Source: an uncultured virus (IMG/VR IMGVR_UViG_3300005683_000013) (Duplodnaviria > Heunggongvirae > Uroviricota > Caudoviricetes). From it: a stretch of DNA of 20,000 bases. The notes under the pieces were generated by a model. That model made no database searches. It saw only the letters and a program-made list of their open reading frames with translations, and was not told the origin of the DNA. The stretch's first letter is position 1; each line of letters opens with the position of its first letter. The DNA lies in the IMG/VR virus record IMGVR_UViG_3300005683_000013; one strand, 5' to 3'. The translations under genes were made by a program, and so were the position numbers. Positions 2,350-13,001 of the stretch are shown piece by piece.

Positions 2350-4566
2350 TCATCCGCATCGAGAATTTCCACAAGCGGAACACTTAACACAACCTTCTTG
2401 ATAAATAAGCGTTCCTTCAGCACCACAGACATCACACTTCTTTTCTGAAGTTGATTTGACTCCATCTGGGATGTATGCCTTTAGAACTCTTGCGATCACT
2501 CTAGCAAATGATGTCATGTCGCTATATTTGTCTTTTTGCAGTTGTTCAACAATGTATTGAACAGGAACATTATGTCGTAACAGCAATGATAACATTCTTG
2601 TTAGCGCGCCCTGTGTTGGATTGTCAAACAATTGAACAATGTCTTTGAACACAAAATCGTCTTCACCAACAGTGATCTTAAGATTATACGACGTTATTCC
2701 GTCTTTCTTGCCGTTTTTCACAAGAATTCCATGTTTGATTTTTTTTGACACTTCGACAAGCGACGATAATCCGCCAAAGACTTCGTAAGGTTTACCATTT
2801 AATAAACCAACAAGAATTGTCCAGGACTCACCTGCAATTTTCACTTGTTTAATGTCGCAAGGTAATTCCTTATGACGTTTAAGTGCATGATTCTCTTCTA
2901 TGATAGAACGTTCTTGAACTGGCTTTGGATTTTTACGAGATTCGTAATATTCTTTAATTTGTTTCAGCGTTGTTTTATAACCTGATGGCATGTTTCGAAA
3001 ATACTTTTCGCCTATGCCTAACATCTTTTCAATTTCTGCATCAGGAACAGCATCATATCGACCAGGAATGTCAATCTGAACCTTCCCATCATCAGACACT
3101 AAAACACCGTCCCTAGATTTATCTCGATAAACAGTGATGCCTTTACACCCAGATTTCCAAGCCTCAAGATACACTTGTGAAACTAGATCATGTGATGCAT
3201 TCTGTGGAAGATTTACTGTTTTTGAAATACTATGACAAATCCATTTTTGAGCTGTTGCTTGCAACTTGACAGTCATCATCCAATCAATGTCATTACTAAG
3301 CGCTTTATGATATGGAGAATCTTTTACGTCAGTTTTTCCTGTGACGTCCATCCATTGTTTAAACGCATGATGATAAACTGTGTGATTTGTCCATTTATCA
3401 CCCATAGCATCAACAAAATCAACTTTTGAATCAATGTCATTAGGATTTTGTTTTTTACGTCGAGTATATGATAACATAAACGCTGGTTCAATCCCACTAG
3501 TTGTTTGTGTTAGTGTAGACAGTGAACCAACAGGTGCGGTCGTCGTATTTGCGATGTTACGTCTACCAAATTTCTTATAGCGTTCAGACAGTTCAGAATC
3601 TTGAGACATTATTCGTTGAATGAACGGATGTTGATGTTCTAGTTCATAATCGTATACTGCGAACGGGCCACGTTCCTCAGCCATTTTGACGCTTGAACGA
3701 TATGATGCAAGCGCAAGAGCACGATAAATTTTATCAGTCCATTCAATTGATTCTTCAGACCCGTACCTCACGTTCAACATTGCAAGAGCATCGCCGAGAC
3801 CAGTTGGACCGAGACCAGTTCGTCTTCCATTTACACATGCACTTCGAATTTTTTTCCAAAGTTCAAGTTCTATTGTTTTGACGTATTCGCTTTCTGGATC
3901 TGTTTGCACTTTATTAATGATCTTGTCAATCATTTCAATTTCAAGATCAACAATATCATCTAACAATCTTTGACCTATTTGAGCACATTCATCAAATTTT
4001 TCAAAATTGAATGTTGGGTTGTTTGTAAACGCACCATCAACAAAATGTGTTAGATCGATTGCTAACAACCTACATGAGTCTCCCATTGAAAGTGCAAGCT
4101 CTGCGCATGGATTTGTGCTTACAGTTTTAAATCCAAAATCTTTGTAGATATCAGCAACACCGTTATTGATCATTGCATCCCAAAACAACCCACCTGGTTC
4201 TGCAGAATCCCATCCTGCATCAATAAATTGTTCCCAAACGTCTCTTGCACGAACAACTTTTGTAATTTTTGCTTGTTCAATTGGAACGTCTATAGGCCAT
4301 TGCAACGTAAAATCTGTGTCTTTGTCAACTGCCTCCATAAACTCATCACAAAGTTTAATTGAAATATTTGCGCCGGTGACGCGTGTTCTATCACGTTTAA
4401 TGTGAATAAATGTTTCAATCTCTGGATGATTGCAATTTGATGTATAAAAACCGTTTGCAAGAATTCTATGTGTATCTTTTACTGTAAAATCATAACTAGG
4501 GCCTCGACCAATAGATTTAATACTTTTAATTTTTGACGTGCTCTTGATAACTCTAATCACTTCCAT
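2350..4566 (-). CDS. nrdJ: Class II (B12-dependent) ribonucleotide reductase, C-terminal part, preceded by a C-intein
   Basis: HPEIETFI, ANIS, AEPG, TNPCAEL (radical Cys), CRL, RRTGLG, APVGS, SGIEP, ISKTVN and GCKGITVYR, plus a C-terminal TSCPD-like domain and CxxC..EGCxxCxxCGxSxC zinc ribbon. GGAG RBS lies inside the endonuclease ORF. Confidence 0.93.
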   Translation of the reverse strand: MEVIRVIKSTSKIKSIKSIGRGPSYDFTVKDTHRILANGFYTSNCNHPEIETFIHIKRDRTRVTGANISIKLCDEFMEAVDKDTDFTLQWPIDVPIEQAKITKVVRARDVWEQFIDAGWDSAEPGGLFWDAMINNGVADIYKDFGFKTVSTNPCAELALSMGDSCRLLAIDLTHFVDGAFTNNPTFNFEKFDECAQIGQRLLDDIVDLEIEMIDKIINKVQTDPESEYVKTIELELWKKIRSACVNGRRTGLGPTGLGDALAMLNVRYGSEESIEWTDKIYRALALASYRSSVKMAEERGPFAVYDYELEHQHPFIQRIMSQDSELSERYKKFGRRNIANTTTAPVGSLSTLTQTTSGIEPAFMLSYTRRKKQNPNDIDSKVDFVDAMGDKWTNHTVYHHAFKQWMDVTGKTDVKDSPYHKALSNDIDWMMTVKLQATAQKWICHSISKTVNLPQNASHDLVSQVYLEAWKSGCKGITVYRDKSRDGVLVSDDGKVQIDIPGRYDAVPDAEIEKMLGIGEKYFRNMPSGYKTTLKQIKEYYESRKNPKPVQERSIIEENHALKRHKELPCDIKQVKIAGESWTILVGLLNGKPYEVFGGLSSLVEVSKKIKHGILVKNGKKDGITSYNLKITVGEDDFVFKDIVQLFDNPTQGALTRMLSLLLRHNVPVQYIVEQLQKDKYSDMTSFARVIARVLKAYIPDGVKSTSEKKCDVCGAEGTLIYQEGCVKCSACGNSRCG
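4435..4566 (-). mobile_element. Split intein C-fragment of NrdJ (44 aa)
   Basis: Block F SYDFTVKDTHRILANG and block G FYTSN, followed by +1 Cys (CNHPEI). The fragment is basic. Confidence 0.88.
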
Positions 4567-5509
4567 TTAAAATCTCCATAATTTTGTTTTTAACAACATC
4601 AAAATTACAATGGATGTCATGTTCCCAAAATTCAACGTATTTGTAATCATTATCAATTGCAATTTGTTCTTTTATTTTATCATCTTGTCTTTTAGCGATT
4701 TGATGATCACGTAACAACTTTAAACCATCACCGTAAAACCTAGGATTTCCATGCCAAAAATCACCTTGCACTTCAATTATTGTTTTTTTGTCGTAAATAA
4801 CAAAATCATATTGTCGTTTCTGTAAAATAAATGAATATTTGAAATTAGCATTAACTTCGATTAGAAATTTTTCAATTTTTTCTTCAATTTCTGTTTTCTT
4901 GATTTTACAAGCCAAAAATTGAGCCTGTGAAGCTGCCTTAATTTTTTCAATCGTTTCACTACTGTATATGCCTGTCTTACCTTTGTTCCATGGAATATAA
5001 TTTCTATGAAAAAGCATATCATTTATTTTTCTAGTTAGTATGCGTCGATTCGTAATTTCATCTTTATTTTCAGAACTGCACCAATGTGTTTCGGCAATAG
5101 CTAAACCAATTTCTTTATTGATTGATTCAGCACATTGTGTGCTACAACATCCTCTCAATTTTTTTGATTTTTTACATTGAATACCACATTTTTTACAGTT
5201 TCTAATCGATCGAGATAAAGCAGAAAGTTGTTTTTTTTCATTTATAACTTTATCTCGATCGATTTTTGACGCAAATTTTTTTACAATAATTTTTTTGCGA
5301 GAAATTTTTGCCGTCTTCCAATCGACACAAAACATTTCCTTTCCAATAAGGATATCACACAATTGTTGATTATTGTAATTTAGTGCTCTAATTAAACTTG
5401 TTCCAGTTCTAAACTTATTTGTTTTAATTCCTTGATATTCAACAACTTCAGGTAATTCAAACCATAATAAATCAAATGATTCTTTTAATAATTTCAGGGT
5501 GATTGACAT
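4553..5509 (-). CDS. Free-standing homing endonuclease, Vsr-like/EDxHD type, with Cys-rich and NUMOD3-like DNA-binding modules
   Basis: C-terminal TEIE..YDF..IIEVQGDFWHG..D..K..FWEHD nuclease motif, CKKC..CCSTQC cluster and PWNKGKTGIYSSETIEKI. Sits between the two intein halves and is visibly more AT-rich than its flanks. Confidence 0.85.
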   Translation of the reverse strand: MSITLKLLKESFDLLWFELPEVVEYQGIKTNKFRTGTSLIRALNYNNQQLCDILIGKEMFCVDWKTAKISRKKIIVKKFASKIDRDKVINEKKQLSALSRSIRNCKKCGIQCKKSKKLRGCCSTQCAESINKEIGLAIAETHWCSSENKDEITNRRILTRKINDMLFHRNYIPWNKGKTGIYSSETIEKIKAASQAQFLACKIKKTEIEEKIEKFLIEVNANFKYSFILQKRQYDFVIYDKKTIIEVQGDFWHGNPRFYGDGLKLLRDHQIAKRQDDKIKEQIAIDNDYKYVEFWEHDIHCNFDVVKNKIMEILNGSD

Positions 5510-5521
5510 ATATCATATATA

Positions 5522-5833
5522 TCAGCCCTCACTAAGTGTTGTATCATAAAACACTAACTCTTCTTTTTCAACGTCAACGTATTTAATTTCTTTCAAATAT
5601 TCTTCACCAGTATCAATGTTTTTGACAACAAATTTATGATCTGATGTAACCTTGATAGTTTTACCATTTTCGGTCTCAATTTCATACAATTCGCTATCTT
5701 CAAATTTTTGATACGCTTCGATTTCTTTCCATCCTTCATGTGTCCAAACCTTACCAGAATATTGTGTATCGACAACGTTGTCAATTCTTTGCCATCCATC
5801 TTGAGTCAAAACATTTGTTGACCCTTCGAAACA
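5522..5833 (-). mobile_element. Split intein N-fragment of NrdJ (103 aa)
   Basis: Block A CFEGSTNVLTQDG and block B IKVTSDHKF. The fragment is strongly acidic and ends at a stop codon. Confidence 0.9.
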
Positions 5834-6409
5834 TTGAATAGTCAACATGAGCGCGCCGCGTCTTCCACCTTGAGCAACTTCACGACAAGTGTTACTGTAT
5901 CTATCCATAAACACAGCAATTCCATCAGTTGTACCGGCCGCATTTGCAGTTGGCATTCCCTTGGGTCTAATTGATGATATGTCAAATCCGACGCCGCCTC
6001 GGCGCTTCATGATTTGTGCCTCTTGTTGATCAGTATAGAAGATTCCAGCATATGAATCTTCTGGTGATGCAACAACAAAACAATTTGAAATGCTTTGAAT
6101 CTTGTATGGGTTACCAATACCAGATAACGGGCTTCCTTGCGGAACGATTGGGCCCATGCCTAATCTTCCTGGACGTTTACACATATAAGAGTAAATTTGT
6201 TCACTAGAAAGAGGATTCGGATATCTTGCTTCAATGCGAGCAAGTTCAGGTGCAATACGATTCTTGAACATGTCATCAGGATCTGATTCAAGAATCGTAT
6301 TTTCATTATCTCTCAATGCATATTTTCCTAAAAAAACATCTGGAGCTACAGTGTCATCTGGAAAATACGCTTGTGTGCTGTGCTTTGCTTCGTCGTAAGT
6401 TAATTTCAT
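5522..6409 (-). CDS. nrdJ: Class II ribonucleotide reductase, N-terminal part, fused to an N-intein
   Basis: FLGKYALRD, PQGSP, SNCFV, KRRGGVGFDISSIRPKG and VAQGGRRGALML. GAGG RBS. No ATP cone is visible. Confidence 0.92.
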   Translation of the reverse strand: MKLTYDEAKHSTQAYFPDDTVAPDVFLGKYALRDNENTILESDPDDMFKNRIAPELARIEARYPNPLSSEQIYSYMCKRPGRLGMGPIVPQGSPLSGIGNPYKIQSISNCFVVASPEDSYAGIFYTDQQEAQIMKRRGGVGFDISSIRPKGMPTANAAGTTDGIAVFMDRYSNTCREVAQGGRRGALMLTIQCFEGSTNVLTQDGWQRIDNVVDTQYSGKVWTHEGWKEIEAYQKFEDSELYEIETENGKTIKVTSDHKFVVKNIDTGEEYLKEIKYVDVEKEELVFYDTTLSEG

Positions 6410-6430: not shown

Positions 6431-7834
6431 TTACGAAACTTCCTTTATTTCAATCCTGCTATTGAAATGTTGAAGTTTGTCTTTTATCGCCTTTTTTAGA
6501 TCTTGTTCATTTTGAATCGTTGCGTCGGTTGCTGACATTGGCGTGGTTTTTTCACCAATAATTTCAAACTTTGATCGAGCAGTATCAATTTTTACTGGAA
6601 AAATTATGCCGTCTCTTCCGGCACGATTTTTTGCAACATACAACCGACCAAATCCCGATGCTTTTTCAACTGATCTTCTAGAAATAGTGATGACAAAATC
6701 ATCAATGAAAGCTTTTCCATAACCTTCACTCATGTTTGTCAAATCGATTATTTCGCTGTCTGCACCCTCTTTGTTTGATTGACTCGCGGTAAAAATAGGT
6801 ATCCCCAGCTCACCAGCATAACCACGTAATTCTTCATGTATTAATTTTAGTTCATGACGCAATGAATCATATTGACGTGTTGATCTCATGATATCAGCAT
6901 AGTCAACAATGATTAAGTCAGGTCTAAATCCCTTTAGAGCGCATCTCTCAACGTGTGATCTAATGGTTAAAATTGATGCAGAATTCGTGGGAAAGTATTT
7001 GATCTTTAGACGACCTAATTTTGCTTGTTCTTTTGTATAATACTCAATAACTTTTTCTTTGTTAGCAATAATTTCATTACTATCGATGTCACAAAAGTTT
7101 GAGTCATATCGAATTCCAACTTTTTCTTCACTCAATTCAAACGTGTAATGCAATACATTGTACTTGTTTCGAATTGCGTTTGCTCCGATTGTCGTTAAAA
7201 AGTGAGATTTGCCTGCACCAGTGGCGCCAATGCAACACAACAACTCGCCTTTTCCCATTCCACCCTGAAGAACATCTTTTGCATCTAACTCTGGAATTCC
7301 TGTCGGGACCACACAACGATTGATTAGAGTAAATCTTGATTCCAATTCATCAAAAAAATCGTGTCCAAGCGATGGCATCGTACCGACAGAAACTGCTGTT
7401 TTGATAATATCAACAATTGATTCATATTTTTCAGTCTCAATCAAATCAACTGCTTTATCCATTGCGCCTTTAAGCGCTTGCTTTCGACAAAAATCTAATG
7501 ACTTATCTTTGACCATGGGCAAATCGCCTGGATCTGGATTTGTCTTTGTTCTTTGTAAATAATCAATTATTTGATCTCTTAATTGAATGTCTTGACCGGA
7601 TTTTAGATCATCTTTAATAATCGTGACTAGTAATTGCAAAGATGGATAATCTTTGTATTTTCTTGCATACTTGAAGTATGCGTCGGACAAATACTGTAGA
7701 TACTTTAGTTCAAAATATCTCGTATCAAAGACTTCAACCATTTGCTCTGCCCATTTTTTATCAGTGAGCAATGCTTGCATGATTTTTTCTTGAAACGACT
7801 TTCCGTATTTACCAAATGTATCAATTTCTGTCAT
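6431..7834 (-). CDS. dnaB: Replicative DNA helicase, DnaB/T4 gp41-like
   Basis: Walker A GATGAGKS, YTFELSE, Walker B IIVDYAD, TASQSN and AKNRAG. Confidence 0.9.
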   Translation of the reverse strand: MTEIDTFGKYGKSFQEKIMQALLTDKKWAEQMVEVFDTRYFELKYLQYLSDAYFKYARKYKDYPSLQLLVTIIKDDLKSGQDIQLRDQIIDYLQRTKTNPDPGDLPMVKDKSLDFCRKQALKGAMDKAVDLIETEKYESIVDIIKTAVSVGTMPSLGHDFFDELESRFTLINRCVVPTGIPELDAKDVLQGGMGKGELLCCIGATGAGKSHFLTTIGANAIRNKYNVLHYTFELSEEKVGIRYDSNFCDIDSNEIIANKEKVIEYYTKEQAKLGRLKIKYFPTNSASILTIRSHVERCALKGFRPDLIIVDYADIMRSTRQYDSLRHELKLIHEELRGYAGELGIPIFTASQSNKEGADSEIIDLTNMSEGYGKAFIDDFVITISRRSVEKASGFGRLYVAKNRAGRDGIIFPVKIDTARSKFEIIGEKTTPMSATDATIQNEQDLKKAIKDKLQHFNSRIEIKEVS

Positions 7835-7855
7835 ATGAGCCTTTCGTAAAACAGT

Positions 7856-7886
7856 TCAAGCAAAGAAAATTCCGTTCTTTGCTTGA
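7856..7886. promoter_or_regulatory. Intergenic 12-bp stem-loop between exonuclease and helicase genes
   Basis: TCAAGCAAAGAA-7 nt-TTCTTTGCTTGA perfect inverted repeat. It could be a terminator or a processing/stability element. Confidence 0.5.
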
Positions 7887-7919
7887 TTATTCAATAAACT
7901 GTAAAATTGTTTTATGTGT

Positions 7920-8912
7920 TTAAACGTTATGTTTTGTATACCCAACAAGTAAAAACGCATAAAACAATGATTCAACATCAAACGTTGTGATTCCCTCTTC
8001 GATCAACAATTTCATGAATTCAACTTTGTTTGCTGACGGTTTGTAGTTATCAACAATAAACTCAATTTTTGAAATTTGCGAAGCTGATAGCATCACGCTA
8101 TCAAGATAAACTAACTGCCAGTTCCGTTTAATCAAATCTATTGATTCAAGTACCTTAGAATAAACGCCAGATTTTTTTTGGTTCACTGTACAATAATCAA
8201 TCACTTCATCTATTAAAATGTCTCTTTCAGATCCAAACAATGGAATTCTTTTCACTAACGTTTTAAATCCAACGCCGTCAATTCCCGGTATGTTGTCTGA
8301 AACATCGCCACAAAATGCTTTTGCTAACGCAAAATTCTGTGGTGTGATCTTGTACTCTTTTATCACATCTTCTTTTTTGATGATTATCTTCTTATGAAGA
8401 TTGTAAATTTCAATAGAATCATCAAGAAGTTGATAAAAATCCTTGTCTGACGAAACGATCAATTTTTTTGCTGCTGCAAATTTGCGTTTTGCTAAAAAAG
8501 CAATTACGTCGTCGCCTTCGCAATTTGGAACGTAAACCTGACAGACAGGCAACAATTTTAGTAATTTCGCCAAAGTTCTAATTTGTTGCGATTTATTTTC
8601 TTCCGTGTCGGGAATGTCATCTTCATAAAAACGATTAAGTTTTTCAGGCTTTCGATTTGCCTTGTATTCTGAAAACAAAGACCGACGTCTAGATGAACCA
8701 CCACTTTCCCATGCAACGTAAATTGCCTTAGGATGTGTGTCATTGATGACTTTGTGTAAAGTCTTTAAAAATCCAACGATTCCACCAACTTGGTATCCAT
8801 GTGAAGACATCGCTGGAAATGCACAGTAAGACCTAATGAAAAGGTTAACTCAAAGCCCGTCGATAAGCAATATAGGACGCTTATCGACGGGCACCTCGTG
8901 ATTCTCTGTCAT
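7920..8912 (-). CDS. 5'-3' exonuclease / flap endonuclease (PolI 5' nuclease, T5 exo, T4 RNase H family), with an in-frame UGA at codon 21
   Basis: From ATG 8912 it reads MTENHEVPVDKRPILLIDGL*VNLFIRSY, in frame with the ORF-track segment 7920-8810. Downstream motifs YKANR, EGDDVI, SSDKDF and GDVSDNIPGIDGVGFKT are intact. Confidence 0.88.
8855..8892 (-). promoter_or_regulatory. Perfect 14-bp GC-rich stem-loop in coding sequence, ending 2 nt 5' of the in-frame UGA (candidate recoding signal)
   Basis: GCCCGTCGATAAGC-GTCCTATATT-GCTTATCGACGGGC, then TT TGA GTT AAC. Confidence 0.7.
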
Positions 8913-8944
8913 TGAACCAATTTACTTCAGATTATACTGATTGT

Positions 8945-9958
8945 TCAGAAAAAACTTCCAGGATCAGAAATGACGTAATCACCCGTCCCGGGCCTTATCA
9001 TGATATTGTCAGAATGCAAATCATTCCAATTAAAATTGTGATTCTTGCTTAGGAATTGTAACGTTTTCATCAAGTCTTTCATTTGATCGTCTTCAACCAC
9101 GGAGTCAAATGTTGTCATGTCATCTTGTGAAGACATTGGCATCACTAAACTATTCAAAGCGTTACTAATTTTGCCTTGAAAAGTTCCCTCTGCGTATTGC
9201 CATTCTTCTAGTGATACACTATTAGGCAGTTTTTTACCAAATTGTTGCATCGCAGTACGTATTTGTTGAACAAACTGATCAATTAATTTTGAGTATTGTT
9301 GAAACGATGAATCGTTTGAACCTGTAGTTGTTAGTGATTTCTCCATCGTCGATAATGACTTCACAACCATCTGATAAAGTTCAGTAAACATCTGTGGTTC
9401 TAGTTTAATTTTTGATTCTTTTAACGAAAAAATCAACAGTTTTTTGAGTGAATCAGAACCATGAACAAATGATTTTAGTCTGTTTTTTATCATGTAAACG
9501 GTGTCAGACATCTCAACTGGTGACCACAAACTCTGAGCAATACTCTTTGGTAATGGCAACAAATACTCCACAAGAACACAATCTTGATAAAACCCAACAT
9601 CATCATATAATTCTTCTGTGATTTTATAAAACTTATACACTGACAAAATGTTTTTAGCAAATTCTTTAGGAAGTTCTTCTTTAAATCCTTTTATCTTTTG
9701 ATAAACTTCAACTTCATGTTCTGGAATGAATTTTGCAACATATCTTTTTCCACTGATTTCGACTTCATATGCAACGGCGTTCGCTCCATTACCAAGTTTT
9801 GAGCCTTTCTTACCAGACGGAATTGGGTTTAAATTTTGATTGACAAGCCATTTTTCAAAAGGATCAGAAGATTTTGATGCCCATTTTTTTAAAACATCAG
9901 AATCTTCTCGTAGTGATTCTCGTAAAACTGTACGTAATTGTTTGACTGTCAATCTCAT
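8945..9958 (-). CDS. Protein kinase-like (Ser/Thr kinase fold) protein with LRES-type N-terminal leader
   Basis: Gly-rich loop LGNGANAVAY, VAK lysine, E in helix C, catalytic DLHSDNIM and metal-binding ISDPG. Start moved to ATG 9958 (MRLTVKQLRTVLRESLRED). Confidence 0.8.
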   Translation of the reverse strand: MRLTVKQLRTVLRESLREDSDVLKKWASKSSDPFEKWLVNQNLNPIPSGKKGSKLGNGANAVAYEVEISGKRYVAKFIPEHEVEVYQKIKGFKEELPKEFAKNILSVYKFYKITEELYDDVGFYQDCVLVEYLLPLPKSIAQSLWSPVEMSDTVYMIKNRLKSFVHGSDSLKKLLIFSLKESKIKLEPQMFTELYQMVVKSLSTMEKSLTTTGSNDSSFQQYSKLIDQFVQQIRTAMQQFGKKLPNSVSLEEWQYAEGTFQGKISNALNSLVMPMSSQDDMTTFDSVVEDDQMKDLMKTLQFLSKNHNFNWNDLHSDNIMIRPGTGDYVISDPGSFF

Positions 9959-9963
9959 GCACT

Positions 9964-9970
9964 TAAATAT
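9964..9970 (-). promoter_or_regulatory. Putative late promoter motif ATATTTA, 5 nt before the kinase ATG
   Basis: Same motif and spacing as at 813 and 14260. Confidence 0.55.
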
Positions 9971-9971
9971 C

Positions 9972-10002
9972 AATGTGCATGAACAACAAGCTCATGCACA
10001 TT
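9972..10002 (-). terminator. Stem-loop after dUTPase, possible terminator
   Basis: AATGTGCATGA/TCATGCACATT 11-bp stem, extended on the minus strand by G-U and C-G pairs. It lies 15 nt after the dut stop. Confidence 0.5.
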
Positions 10003-10017
10003 TGACAATCTTACGTC

Positions 10018-10524
10018 TTAGATTCCAGTGGAACCAAAACCGTTTGACCCTCGAGTTGATTCTGATGTTTCAGATACCTCAATCAGTTTTACGTTCAAAT
10101 GAGCGCTTACTGTTGCTAAAGTGTAATAACACACTAATTGTGCAATTCTAGAACCACGCTTGTACGAGATTGTAGAATCAGTGCTGTTATATAACACCAC
10201 GATAATTTCACCTCTGTATCTAGGATCTAAAATGCCGCCGACTGGAAATACGCCATTTGCTGCCATTCCAGAGCGACCTTCAATCTTCATAAAAGGAACG
10301 GCAGAAATCCTATTATCAATTATCAACGGTTCTATGCTTTCAGCAAACATCAAACCGGTGCTAACTTTCGCTGTCTTTCCAGGCAACAGCGTCACATCTT
10401 CAACACAAGATAGGTCAAAGCCAACATCGCCAGCTGCTTGAATAGGCAGGACCGCGCTCTCGTGACACTTCTTCACCGGTATTAGAATATTACTGTACTT
10501 TAGCAAAACATTCCCTCCAATCAT
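10018..10524 (-). CDS. dut: Trimeric dUTPase
   Basis: All five motifs are present: VGFDL, GRSGMA, GILDPRYRGEI, IAQLV and RGSNGFGSTG. The exact start is uncertain; a TTG after GGAGGG is an alternative. Confidence 0.92.
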   Translation of the reverse strand: MIGGNVLLKYSNILIPVKKCHESAVLPIQAAGDVGFDLSCVEDVTLLPGKTAKVSTGLMFAESIEPLIIDNRISAVPFMKIEGRSGMAANGVFPVGGILDPRYRGEIIVVLYNSTDSTISYKRGSRIAQLVCYYTLATVSAHLNVKLIEVSETSESTRGSNGFGSTGI

Positions 10525-11465
10525 TCTGTGTCATCTCCTTCTTCACCTGAATCATTCAAGACTTCATCTTGTTCGCTCTTCGATGGAAGTTTGACATACG
10601 CAGCCTCCATCATGTCATCAACGTATTTTCCTAAAACAGGATCCGAAATAATGTTGCCAAAATCCTTTTTTGAGAATTTCTTGCAAACGATAACGTTTCC
10701 TGAAGAATCAGTGACTGTCAAAGATTTCCATGCGCCGCCGCCGTCAACCAATAACTTTTTTCCGTCTTTTTCAATTGGGCCATTTTTTTCACAATACATT
10801 CGTAACACATCATAAATTTCTTCATGTTCAAAAATACCACGACCAAAATGAATTTGAAATTCAACTTTACGAAGAGGTGGAGCGACTTTGTTTTTCACTG
10901 TTTTAGCAGCGACATTGATGCCGATAATGTCTCCGTCTTTGTTCTCAATTTTTGATCCACCAGTCAAAGCAAGTCGAACGCTAGCATGGAATGGAACGGC
11001 CATTCCCCCACTCGTGCATGTTGGGTCGCCGTACATTGTATTGTGTGACAAAATACCGTTTGAATAATAACAGTTTGATCCCTCGACCTCAATATCCAAT
11101 ATATCTGTTTTACTAGATGTCTTAGTAACTTTACCAGTTATCCACTTGTTCTCTTCTGACAAAAACAACAAATCTTGTTTGTCAACAGCTTCCATAGCAG
11201 GTAACCAATGTTCAATACCGTCTGATTTAACATAAAATCGATGTAACCCAGAAACTACTAATGTCTTTCTATTAACAAGATCAACGTTATATGCAATACT
11301 TTCTTGTTTTCTAACGATTTTTAGAATTTTCGACCAAACATTTACTTTGTTTGTAACGTCATATGCAAGTATCTCATACTTTAAATGACTAACATCAACA
11401 GGTGTATCATATTCTAATGTTTGATATGGAAAACCCATTTCTTCAAACAACTTTGAGATAATCAT
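10521..11465 (-). CDS. recA: RecA/UvsX recombinase, C-terminal part, preceded by a long C-intein
   Basis: After ...SHN the sequence reads TMYGDPTCTSGGMAVPFHASVRL...KTVKNKVAPPLRKVEFQIHFGRGI, continuing RecA. AAGGA RBS lies inside the endonuclease ORF. Confidence 0.9.
   Translation of the reverse strand: MIISKLFEEMGFPYQTLEYDTPVDVSHLKYEILAYDVTNKVNVWSKILKIVRKQESIAYNVDLVNRKTLVVSGLHRFYVKSDGIEHWLPAMEAVDKQDLLFLSEENKWITGKVTKTSSKTDILDIEVEGSNCYYSNGILSHNTMYGDPTCTSGGMAVPFHASVRLALTGGSKIENKDGDIIGINVAAKTVKNKVAPPLRKVEFQIHFGRGIFEHEEIYDVLRMYCEKNGPIEKDGKKLLVDGGGAWKSLTVTDSSGNVIVCKKFSKKDFGNIISDPVLGKYVDDMMEAAYVKLPSKSEQDEVLNDSGEEGDDTE
11040..11465 (-). mobile_element. Split intein C-fragment of RecA (142 aa, blocks B, F, G)
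   Basis: Block B LVVSGLHRF, block F ILDIEVEGSNCYYSNG and block G ILSHN, with +1 Thr. Confidence 0.88.
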
Positions 11466-12240
11466 TAATTTTTTCCTTTGTAGAATTCATTATAACTTCA
11501 AATGATTCCTTGATATCTTTTTCCCAAATTACCAATCTGTGATAACCTAATTGTTTTGCTTTGTCACGTTTACAAAAATCTCTTCTAATAGATTTTCTTT
11601 GCCAGTCATTAATTGGCCCATTTACATAAACTGACGGATTACAATGCCAATAATCACCATGAACTTCTATTAAGATGTTAGTATTTTTAACATGAAAATC
11701 AAAATAAAAGCTATCTACCAGAAATTGTCTTGTAATTTCAAACCCTTGATTTTCTAACCATTCACCAACTATACGTTCTGGTTTAGAAATTGTACACATA
11801 TACGCGTTTGGCAATTTTGTATTTGGCGTTATTCCGTTTTTAATTAAAATTTCTTTTATTTGTTTCCATCCACGTTGTGTTATTTTTGCTATGTCTTTAA
11901 TGTAAACGCCCTGTTGACCAAGTTCCTTTATTTTTATCAATTCTTCAGGATACAAATCAGATGGTAAAAATTTTATTTGTGGAATTTTACAATGTTCAAG
12001 TTTGAGCCTCTTATAAAGAGTTCCACCAATATTGCAAATATCACGAATCACTTTTGGATTTAAACATCCGAAACTCCACAAATACACTAATTTTTCAATT
12101 AATTCTGGAGTTTCGGATCTTTCTTTTAAAGCTTTAGAAATTGCTGATTTACGTTTTTCACTAAAAATTTGTCCAGTGTTTCCTAAAGCTATTTTTTTCT
12201 TTGTTTCTTCTGAATGTTTTTTGCGAGTTCTCTTACCCAT
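11443..12240 (-). CDS. Free-standing homing endonuclease, Vsr-like/EDxHD type, with NUMOD3 repeats and HTH-like segments
   Basis: KHSEETKKKI and FSEKRKSAIS (NUMOD3-like), IKDIAKITQRGWKQIKEIL (HTH-like), and SKPE..FDF..LIEVHGDYWH..RD..K..IWEKD. Confidence 0.87.
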   Translation of the reverse strand: MGKRTRKKHSEETKKKIALGNTGQIFSEKRKSAISKALKERSETPELIEKLVYLWSFGCLNPKVIRDICNIGGTLYKRLKLEHCKIPQIKFLPSDLYPEELIKIKELGQQGVYIKDIAKITQRGWKQIKEILIKNGITPNTKLPNAYMCTISKPERIVGEWLENQGFEITRQFLVDSFYFDFHVKNTNILIEVHGDYWHCNPSVYVNGPINDWQRKSIRRDFCKRDKAKQLGYHRLVIWEKDIKESFEVIMNSTKEKINDYLKVV

Positions 12241-12245
12241 AGAAC

Positions 12246-12252
12246 TAACTAT
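12246..12252 (-). promoter_or_regulatory. ATAGTTA, variant of the putative late promoter, 5 nt before the endonuclease ATG
   Basis: One mismatch to ATATTTA with identical N5 spacing. No SD sequence. Confidence 0.4.
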
Positions 12253-12254
12253 GG

Positions 12255-13001
12255 CTAATCATCAGACTTGCGCACAGTTAGTTCAGTTTCTGGTCCTACA
12301 CAACCAATTTTCATTCTTGTCTGATTTAAGATCACCATTAAAATGTTATTGTTACCAATGACTTGAGTGACTTTTCTCATACATTTGCTAATCACTCTTG
12401 CAGCCAGACCCATCGTTGATGTGTCATAATCACCTTCAAGCTCAGCTTTGGGAGGTGTTCCTGCAAGCGAATCCCAAATAATCGTAAATGGAATATCTTT
12501 TTTTATGGCTGAAGCTTTCGTGATCGTTGATTCAACAATTGAAAAAACATCTTCAATGCATTCTGGATCTGCATAAATAAAACGTTTTGAAACGTCAACT
12601 CCTAAAGAAGCAAGGTTCTCTGGAAGAATTGCATTTTCTGTATCAATATAAACAACAACACCACCAAGCGCTTGCGTATTTTTTGCAAATTGTGCAGCAA
12701 GATGTGATTTTCCAATTGATGGTGGTCCGAATATTTCTATGATTCTTCCTTCTGGCGCTCCACCTCCTTTCTTATTTGCAATGATATAGTCTAATTGTTT
12801 ACTTCCTGTTGAAATCCAACGTTTAATATGTGTTGGTGATGTGTCTGAACTAAGATTGTAAGCAATACGTTGTTGATGTTCTTTGTTCAATGACTTTATC
12901 AAATCTTGAACAAAATCATCTTTACTATCAAGATCCACTTCTGAGTGTTTTGTTGACTCAATCAATTCAGTTTCTGATGCAATTTTCTTTTTACTAGCCA
13001 T
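12255..13001 (-). CDS. recA: RecA/UvsX recombinase, N-terminal part, fused to a 15-aa N-intein
   Basis: ISTGSKQLD, GGAPEGRIIEIFGPPSIGKS (Walker A), YIDTENA, IIWDSLA (Walker B), ARVISKCMRK and LNQTRMKIG. AGGAG RBS. Confidence 0.93.
   Translation of the reverse strand: MASKKKIASETELIESTKHSEVDLDSKDDFVQDLIKSLNKEHQQRIAYNLSSDTSPTHIKRWISTGSKQLDYIIANKKGGGAPEGRIIEIFGPPSIGKSHLAAQFAKNTQALGGVVVYIDTENAILPENLASLGVDVSKRFIYADPECIEDVFSIVESTITKASAIKKDIPFTIIWDSLAGTPPKAELEGDYDTSTMGLAARVISKCMRKVTQVIGNNNILMVILNQTRMKIGCVGPETELTVRKSDD
12258..12302 (-). mobile_element. Very short split intein N-fragment of RecA (15 aa, block A only)
   Basis: NQTRMKIG is followed by CVGPETELTVRKSDD and a TAG stop. CxxxxTxhxh is intein block A. 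Confidence 0.82.

Follow-up and report, generated by a model that had tools for sequence, protein, structure and literature searches.

A candidate six-nucleotide translational hop across an in-frame stop codon in a viral flap nuclease gene

How could a complete flap nuclease be made from a gene in which a stop codon follows almost directly upon the codon for the first catalytic aspartate? This question is raised by a locus in an uncultured virus of the Caudoviricetes (IMG/VR record IMGVR_UViG_3300005683_000013), of which we analyzed a stretch of 20,000 nucleotides (nt), hereafter referred to as the window. The gene for the flap nuclease (FEN, a 5'-3' exonuclease) is located on the minus strand, where the leader that starts at ATG 8912 closes with ATC GAC GGG CTT and is followed by TGA, GTT and AAC, beyond which the frame is open as far as the TAA at 7922-7920 (Table 1). 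The first catalytic Asp is encoded, but it is separated from the rest of the gene by the in-frame TGA and one further codon. A preliminary description of the locus, made from the letters alone, had read the junction as D-G-L-stop-V-N and had proposed that the ribosome skips exactly TGA-GTT. This reading of the frame is borne out by our analysis, and we estimate at roughly three in four the probability that one full-length flap nuclease would be made by means of a programmed translational hop of 6 nt. The estimate builds on the sequence features of the site, on their conservation and covariation in related genes, and on the selection observed on both coding pieces.

The coding potential on the two sides of the stop codon belongs to one and the same domain. 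In the product that is obtained by reading across the gap, residues 14-187 match PF02739 (5'-3' exonuclease, N-terminal domain, resolvase-like) with an E-value of 2.1e-32 and 112.5 bits, as compared to a cut-off of 34.3, and the 5' nuclease of the Taq polymerase aligns from residue 11 onward (1.7e-23). A match to PF01367, the C-terminal H3TH/SAM-fold domain (1.4e-8, 35.5 bits), falls slightly below the cut-off of 40. Because the match to PF02739 spans the stop, the open reading frame (ORF) that begins at ATG 8810 was called too short, without the first strand and, as had been suspected, without the first Asp, and the predicted protein of 296 amino acids (aa) is an artefact that the gap produces in annotation. 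The first Asp stands in a D-G-x-N/H context on one unbroken chain only if the 6 nt are skipped. The window uses the standard genetic code, with TGA terminating 8 of its 19 ORFs, and no tRNA gene was found in it.

Table 1. Positions of the features of the FEN locus in the window.
Feature	Position	Strand	Remark
Whole FEN (5'-3' exonuclease) gene	7920..8912	minus	leader + 6-nt gap + remainder to stop TAA 7922-7920
Leader ORF, 20 codons, ATG 8912 to take-off CTT	8853..8912	minus	encodes first strand and catalytic Asp (ILLIDGL)
SD-like GAGGTG	8892..8897	minus	5' foot of hairpin
Hairpin	8855..8892	minus	5' arm 8892-8878, loop 8877-8870 (8 nt), 3' arm 8869-8855; 14 Watson-Crick and 1 G-U pairs
Take-off codon CTT (Leu)	8853..8855	minus	
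6-nt gap, in-frame TGA (8852-8850) and GTT (8849-8847)	8847..8852	minus	GTT is the proposed near-cognate landing triplet
Resume codon AAC	8844..8846	minus	Asn of D-G-x-N
296-aa ORF reported by gene callers	7920..8810	minus	begins at conserved internal Met

The 6-nt insert is not an assembly error, a possibility that the preliminary description had left to be checked. Contigs from three other studies span positions 7900-9100 with no inserted or deleted letters reported, and the 6 nt are present in all of them. These contigs come from one estuary DNA run (about 99.6% identity), one river DNA run and two wastewater RNA-library runs (the latter about 94.6% identical to the window, as is the river contig); the two wastewater runs (X12 and X13) represent one RNA library, and locus L081 is the window's own contig and thus not independent. 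Furthermore, ten protein clusters of 94-99% identity, all 296 aa in length, were identified in four sources, on contigs that reach about 300 kb, and the five that were fetched (P0001, P0003, P0004, P0007 and P0010) all begin at the internal Met 8810. A BLAST search with positions 7800-9100 gave no match among 50,697 phage records, the exact 26-nt pattern of the site gave 0 matches in viral_contigs, and the in-frame pattern gave 0 matches in genome_contigs, which covers one genome per species.

The spacing of the active-site residues in uninterrupted relatives indicates which nucleotides are in excess. Neither a stop nor an extra residue is present between D and N in any of the 79 evaluable loci from IMG/VR (80 were fetched, one of them without upstream DNA), and 69 of 73 metagenome loci are likewise uninterrupted, the remaining four being the window's own contig, L082, L158 and L159 (the set comprised 80 loci, 7 of which were left out since the match did not begin at residue 1). 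In a second subfamily, 87 of 96 evaluable loci have no extra residue between D and N. An insert consisting of sense codons only was not seen at the site in any uninterrupted locus of these three sets. Since every insert starts with a stop, and no sense-only insert was seen, the stop looks required rather than accidental. Alignments place the excess precisely: a protein with 79% identity to that of the window (P0011) shows a 2-residue gap exactly at the TGA-GTT codons, and the Taq polymerase and a mycobacterial Pol I have a 2-residue gap at the same point. The suggestion that deleting just these two codons restores the D-G-L-N spacing is thereby upheld. Among 22 proteins fetched from 120 listed, 13 begin at the conserved internal Met, only one of which (P0013, corresponding to L082) was traced to DNA and found to be interrupted. 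The other twelve are distant homologs (P0023, P0030, P0035, P0045, P0063, P0065, P0091, P0100, P0102, P0108, P0115 and P0117), and these may represent further interrupted genes or start choices made by the gene callers.

The interruption recurs in other FEN genes. Using degenerate-pattern scans of viral_contigs, relatives of two of the matches and the metagenome loci, we identified a stop plus a short insert at this position in eleven further lineages, so that twelve FEN lineages in total are broken directly after the D-G-L or D-G-Y codon (Table 2). One of the scans returned 16 loci, of which 12 were interrupted genes, three were normal genes hit in a different frame (L271, L275 and L279) and one was a chance match (L283); another scan returned 3 loci, including a chance match (L162). 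The break persists across relatives with 42-61% identity, the stop stands immediately after the take-off codon in all twelve lineages, and AAY is the first codon after the gap in all twelve. The take-off codon is CTT in ten lineages, CTC in one and TAC in one, and the stop is TGA in five, TAA in four and TAG in three. The gap comprises 6 nt in nine lineages and 4, 11 and 13 nt in one lineage each. In every lineage, the strand-plus-Asp motif is kept in the leader's own frame, and since this motif and the AAY codon are retained throughout, both pieces would have to be translated and joined.

Table 2. Codons at the junction in the interrupted FEN lineages.
Lineage	Take-off, gap and resume codon
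Window	CTT TGA GTT AAC
L082	CTT TGA ATC AAT
L158/L163	CTT TAA CTC AAC
L159	CTT TAA CTC AAT
L165 group	CTT TAA CTC AAC
L166 group	CTC TAA CGC AAC
L225/L243	CTT TAG CTT AAT
L274/L277/L281	CTT TAG CTG AAC
L276	CTT TAG TTC AAC
L265/L267	TAC + TGAC + AAT (4 nt)
L269	CTT + 11 nt ending in CTT + AAC
L270/L278	CTT + 13 nt ending in ATC + AAT

The triplets that precede the resuming AAY codon resemble the take-off codon. In five of the twelve lineages this triplet is the take-off codon itself or its wobble partner, including a CTT that is found again as CTT across the 11-nt gap. In the remaining seven it matches at two of three positions (GTT, ATC in two lineages, CTG and TTC, as well as CGC for CTC and GAC for TAC). 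A random triplet would match at two or more positions with a chance of 0.25 per lineage if C and T are counted as equal at the third position, and the lineages are not fully independent. Taken together, the spacing in the relatives, the eleven additional lineages and the resemblance of the landing triplets support the proposal that exactly TGA-GTT would be skipped in the window. Other ways of recoding were considered and rejected. In the window, a shift by +1 at CTT-T would enter an unrelated frame that is closed after about 29 codons, and in L270 a TGA is located in the +1 frame two codons ahead of the resume codon, so that a simple +1 shift at CTT-T fails there as well. Selenocysteine or a reassigned TGA was discarded given the TAA and TAG codons at the same site in relatives, the ordinary use of TGA as a terminator in the window and the lack of a tRNA gene there.

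Both sides of the gap have been maintained by selection. For L158 and L163, which differ at about 10% of the positions in the gene as a whole, we obtained a dS value of 0.449 and a dN value of 0.036 downstream of the gap (omega = 0.08). Purifying selection of this strength excludes a pseudogene; the relaxation that the preliminary description had named as a sign of a decaying gene was not seen. Likewise, 20 of the 25 listed ORF differences within the window's own lineage are located at third codon positions, in a list that covers 40 of 64 differences and part of the variation in 8242-8897. The 14 codons from the gap to Met 8810 are in frame and conserved, and the window contains no ATG, GTG or TTG start codon between the stop and ATG 8810. 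Moreover, the interrupted gene is the sole match to PF02739 on three related viral records (215, 75 and 43 kb; 13-62% complete by estimate). Around the take-off codon, L158 and L163 share 130 nt without a single difference, from -76 to +53, with flanks that differ at about 5 positions per 50 nt. This identical island reflects either a strong constraint at the nucleotide level or a recent transfer of the cassette.

A stable predicted hairpin leads up to the site. Its 3' arm encodes LLIDG, and the final base of the arm is the first base of the CTT codon. Two additional G-U pairs can carry the helix on over the other two bases of this codon. A perfect 14-bp hairpin had been described here; the 14 Watson-Crick pairs ending at CTT stand, there is one more G-U pair than was noted, and the proposed G-U extension holds in part, that is, for the second and third bases of CTT. 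A 106-nt segment folds with a z-score of -4.2 (one of 200 shuffled sequences folded equally well), and the 70 nt that end at the site with a z-score of -6.9. In all 13 interrupted representatives, the last pair of the hairpin is found within 0-4 nt of the base that follows the take-off codon. Covariation, which had been put forward as a check on the hairpin, was also detected: in a gapless alignment of the window, L082, L158, L163 and L159, which contains only 4 distinct rows, 95% of the main helix is paired and three pairs have changed on both sides, and the pairing falls to 29-54% if the partners are slid by 1-3 columns. In another group, one pair can be followed from A-U in L274 to G-U in L281 and G-C in L277. 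No Rfam family was identified in 8600-9100 at E-values up to 1.

At the 5' foot of the hairpin there is a Shine-Dalgarno (SD)-like motif, GAGGTG, that had been missed in the preliminary description. Its pairing with the anti-SD sequence amounts to -9.5 kcal/mol, a value that none of 267 windows in the gene body attains and that is reached by only 0.5% of the 20-mers across the window; all but one of the real ribosome-binding sites in the window are weaker.

What we infer from these features of the sequence is the hop, together with its driver and efficiency. The ribosomes would initiate at ATG 8912, read 20 codons and stall, with UGA in the A site and with peptidyl-tRNA-Leu bound to CUU in the P site. 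The weak pairing between CUU and the anticodon may then let go, the mRNA would slide forward by 6 nt, and the tRNA would pair anew with GUU at two of three positions, so that decoding restarts at AAC and gives a product with the canonical D-G-L-N spacing in its active site. The slide would probably be driven by the 15-bp hairpin as it zips up again while its 3' arm exits the ribosome: each nucleotide of the arm that emerges could add one pair to the hairpin and thereby draw the mRNA forward. The SD-like motif may help by pairing with the 16S rRNA, which would hold the 5' arm near the mRNA exit. The gaps of 4-13 nt never exceed the stems of 13-16 pairs, which agrees with a pull that ceases once the stem has formed completely.

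Several observations weigh against a hop of this kind, or against the driver that we propose for it. A hairpin of at least 12 pairs ends at the same place in 43 of 140 uninterrupted representatives, nearly all with the sequence D-G-L-N; these hairpins are kept by compensatory synonymous changes in a sequence that evolves at about the same rate as the gene body. Given such hairpins in uninterrupted relatives, the hairpin may have another primary role, and the hairpin of the window does fit a loose terminator pattern, with a tail that is not U-rich in L165, L166 and L265. The 3' arm would still sit inside the ribosome at take-off; by contrast, the 5' stem-loop of the T4 gene 60, where ribosomes bypass 50 nt, is said to have formed in part outside the ribosome by that stage. 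A leader of only 20 codons makes a nascent-peptide signal of the gene 60 type, 25-30 residues back, impossible. The landing triplet in the window, GTT, differs from CTT at the first position and is near-cognate only. Furthermore, not every lineage counts as independent. At least seven changes of the interrupted state are required on a tree of 158 FEN proteins, at least five of them on well-supported branches; for the window's subfamily, which includes five interrupted rows, a single origin is compatible with the approximately unbiased (AU) test (p = 0.20). Finally, the data consist of contigs, from which rare variants are dropped, and the contigs from the RNA library are no proof of transcription and leave room for rare RNA forms.

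The hairpin alone is thus not diagnostic, given that 43 of 140 uninterrupted relatives have one. The earlier idea of the hairpin as the cue for the hop therefore stands as far as its position at the take-off codon in the interrupted genes is concerned, and falls short in that the hairpin does not by itself mark them. What sets the interrupted genes apart is the SD-like motif. A motif of -6.5 kcal/mol or lower is present in 11 of the 13 interrupted representatives (the values for L166 and L265 do not reach this threshold) as compared to 2 of the 43 uninterrupted hairpins, and at -9 kcal/mol or lower the numbers are 6 of 13 and 0 of 43, respectively. The hairpins also differ in stability, with a z-score of -5.9 for the interrupted and -1.55 for the uninterrupted genes (Mann-Whitney p = 4e-6, not corrected for phylogeny). 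It is the combination of hairpin, SD-like motif and stop that is diagnostic. Uninterrupted genes with a hairpin may have arisen by the healing of a cassette, given that direct repeats of the type CTT...CTY on both sides of a gap make its deletion easy. Hairpins of this kind are kept in the uninterrupted genes L055, L063, L068, L128 and the L188/L203/L217/L235 group; with 12-21 pairs, they occupy the region some 40 nt ahead of the D-G-L-N codons, end at the Leu codon and have no SD-like motif at the foot.

These data also bear on explanations that do without a hop. Readthrough of the stop codon by a near-cognate or suppressor tRNA would yield a nuclease with X-Val added after D-G-L, and we consider it improbable. 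In its favor, the window's gap does not change the frame, seven of the nine lineages with 6-nt gaps have a hydrophobic codon (V, I or L) behind the stop, and in four of the twelve lineages the stop is followed by C (G, A, C, C, C and C in six of them), a weak context for termination. However, all three stop codons are used at the site, the second codon of the gap is Arg in L166 and Phe in L276, and no relative carries a sense-codon insert, quite apart from the termination of other ORFs at TGA and the missing tRNA gene in the window. Since gaps of 4, 11 and 13 nt shift the frame, readthrough cannot join the pieces in these three lineages and is excluded as a common mechanism. It is very improbable that the gene is simply broken, such that translation terminates at the UGA and gives either no nuclease or a truncated one from ATG 8810. 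The latter is what the gene callers report, and Met 8810 is conserved across the family, but neither would account for the low omega value and the third-position excess downstream of the gap, for a strand-plus-Asp motif that is kept in all twelve leaders, or for 14 conserved codons ahead of this Met with no start codon in the window. Nor would a broken gene be expected to persist at 42-61% identity and as the only FEN gene on three related records.

Hardly credible, in our view, is a split enzyme in which the leader peptide is freed at the UGA, translation re-initiates just downstream and the two pieces assemble. Both pieces are indeed conserved as protein, and sliding of 70S ribosomes followed by re-initiation is mentioned in the literature (PMC11194080). 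Against this, the window offers none of the start codons ATG, GTG and TTG in the stretch that leads from the stop to ATG 8810, and the positions of candidate starts vary among the lineages. Furthermore, we know of no precedent for a 20-residue peptide that provides a central strand of the fold. The last explanation concerns the hairpin, which could chiefly serve as an attenuator or terminator, as an operator bound by a protein or as an RNase target at the 5' end of the FEN mRNA, with the hop merely located beside it. This has a low probability as a full account: it would suit the hairpins with compensatory changes in uninterrupted relatives and the terminator-like pattern in the window, whereas the T-rich tail is not conserved in the other lineages, the hairpin ends at the take-off codon in all 13 interrupted representatives, and the nearest uninterrupted neighbors are without a hairpin in four of the interrupted groups in the tree. 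Such a role would also leave the stop unexplained, and it is compatible with a hop.

If the 6-nt hop occurs, it would be an instance of translational bypassing, which is a known kind of event. The best-described example is the 50-nt bypass in T4 gene 60, which is part of a cassette with the homing endonuclease mobA (PMC5009743; bioRxiv 10.1101/2022.08.31.505936; PMC5462505), and for which pairing in the exiting mRNA has been proposed as a forward driver (PMC5009743; bioRxiv 10.1101/2024.12.09.627546). In both genes the take-off codon is followed at once by a stop, the peptidyl-tRNA pairs again (in the FEN gene, would pair again) at a similar codon, with decoding restarting at the codon that follows, and the site is located at the 5' end of a replication gene. 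The differences are nevertheless considerable. The gap in the FEN gene is 6 nt (4-13 nt in relatives) rather than 50 nt and contains no take-off stem-loop, a nascent-peptide signal is not possible, and in the window the tRNA would land on a codon that is no more than near-cognate. The SD-like motif is located 5' of the hairpin and not 6 nt before the landing site, the gene encodes a flap nuclease rather than a topoisomerase, and no endonuclease adjoins it in the window.

In its form, the event would be nearest to the synthetic stop-hops obtained in E. coli by Weiss et al. (1987), in which 9 nt are decoded as one residue (as cited in PMC5009743 and bioRxiv 10.1101/2024.12.09.627546). As in the FEN gene, similar codons flank a single stop, the hop is in frame by +6, and the product is two residues shorter than that of readthrough; CTT TAG CTT and CTT TAA CTC, which are of this form, are found among the relatives of the window. 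The synthetic hops were artificial, of low level and without stimulatory signals, whereas the FEN site occurs in nature, is conserved and has both a hairpin and an SD-like motif. According to PMC5009743, no natural in-frame stop-hop was known in 2016, and we found no later report of one, nor of one in a nuclease gene, in a literature in which subscription journals were largely outside the scope. When ribosomes stall at UGA, they are able to hop onto codons matching the anticodon in the P site (PMC6815119).

The layout of SD-like motif plus stem-loop is nearest to that of the large terminase gene of the Streptomyces phage phiHau3, a candidate for short-gap bypassing with support from mass spectrometry in E. 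coli (PMC10732093). Both cases concern a short gap in a phage gene, with a 5' stem-loop and a flanking SD interaction proposed for the terminase; the A-site codon of the latter is the rare UUA, for which sensing of the host growth phase was proposed, as opposed to a stop and, in the window, an in-frame gap in the FEN gene. The sequence CUU UGA itself is used in the programmed +1 frameshift of prfB (RF2), with CUU as the shifty Leu codon. In prfB, the shift is by +1 onto an overlapping codon, with an SD sequence 3 nt upstream (PMC6815119). The +1 frame in the window is a nonsense frame, and its SD-like motif is located 38 nt upstream in linear distance, with the hairpin in between.

How did such an interruption arise? 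Endonuclease-like ORFs with NUMOD3 or HNH domains are located directly upstream of the FEN gene in four of the twelve lineages (L166/L251, L225/L243, L274/L277 and L276), with no endonuclease directly upstream in the window, L082, L158, L165, L265, L269 and L270. The clearest case is provided by L225/L243, which are about 97% identical downstream of the site to the uninterrupted L236/L238. Between RecA and FEN, a 666-nt insert (L225:796-1461) with an HNH homing endonuclease (phrog_655, 3e-53) replaces 59 nt (L236:1409-1467). The FEN leader of L225/L243 is strongly diverged, and this divergence stops just after the landing codon. The layout is that described for the mobA/gene 60 element (bioRxiv 10.1101/2022.08.31.505936). 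We suggest that a homing-endonuclease element probably overwrote the 5' end of FEN genes and that its untranslatable end became the cassette; in the window, the endonuclease is no longer beside the gene. Related endonucleases also precede uninterrupted genes (L210, L211, L219 and L228), and the link is therefore suggestive rather than exclusive. As for the purpose, the site may be the scar of a homing-endonuclease cassette rather than, or along with, a means of controlling the dosage of a toxic nuclease.

A broader hypothesis, which seems to us evenly poised between right and wrong, is that phage FEN genes hold portable, minimal bypass cassettes that consist of an SD-like anchor, a hairpin of 13-16 bp, CUU and a stop and that permit hops of 4-13 nt. 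Homing endonucleases would spread these cassettes into the codons of a catalytic motif, and the untranslatable insert would protect its carrier from being cut again. If this is true, the version in the window would be the first natural in-frame stop-hop, a hairpin zipper would suffice as the forward driver without a nascent-peptide signal or a structure in the gap, and the length of the hop would be limited by the part of the 3' arm that is still within the ribosome. Homing-endonuclease elements would then have a third route, besides introns and inteins, for residing inside conserved catalytic codons without killing the gene. With its three parts (SD-like motif, hairpin and CUU-stop) within 60 nt, the element would be far simpler than T4 gene 60 as a system for testing the idea that ribosome sliding is driven by pairing in the exiting mRNA. 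A practical consequence is that the annotation should be corrected, as the databases carry the gene as a 296-residue ORF that lacks the first catalytic Asp.

Other genes in the surroundings were also examined. Between the dUTPase and FEN genes of the window there is an ORF of 342 aa (8945-9973, minus strand) with no match in Pfam and a weak match to a protein kinase (phrog_15752, 2e-4); in L082, the dUTPase gene is followed directly by FEN, without a counterpart of this ORF. Two further genes in the window are divided into several ORFs. The gene for ribonucleotide reductase (RNR) is spread over three ORFs on the minus strand (2350-6409), the first of which (5522-6409) contains the N-terminal part of RNR and an N-terminal Hint/intein piece, the second (4553-5509) a Vsr-like endonuclease, and the third (2350-4566) the remainder of RNR and a TSCPD domain. 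This gene looks as if a split intein, accompanied by a free-standing endonuclease, had fractured it, which is a known arrangement. RecA is likewise distributed over three ORFs on the minus strand (10521-13001). The ORF at 12255-13001 covers positions 7-201 of the RecA profile, the one at 11443-12240 is restriction-endonuclease-like and related to the homing endonuclease of L251, and the one at 10521-11465 contains a weak C-terminal intein motif followed by positions 194-261 of the RecA profile.

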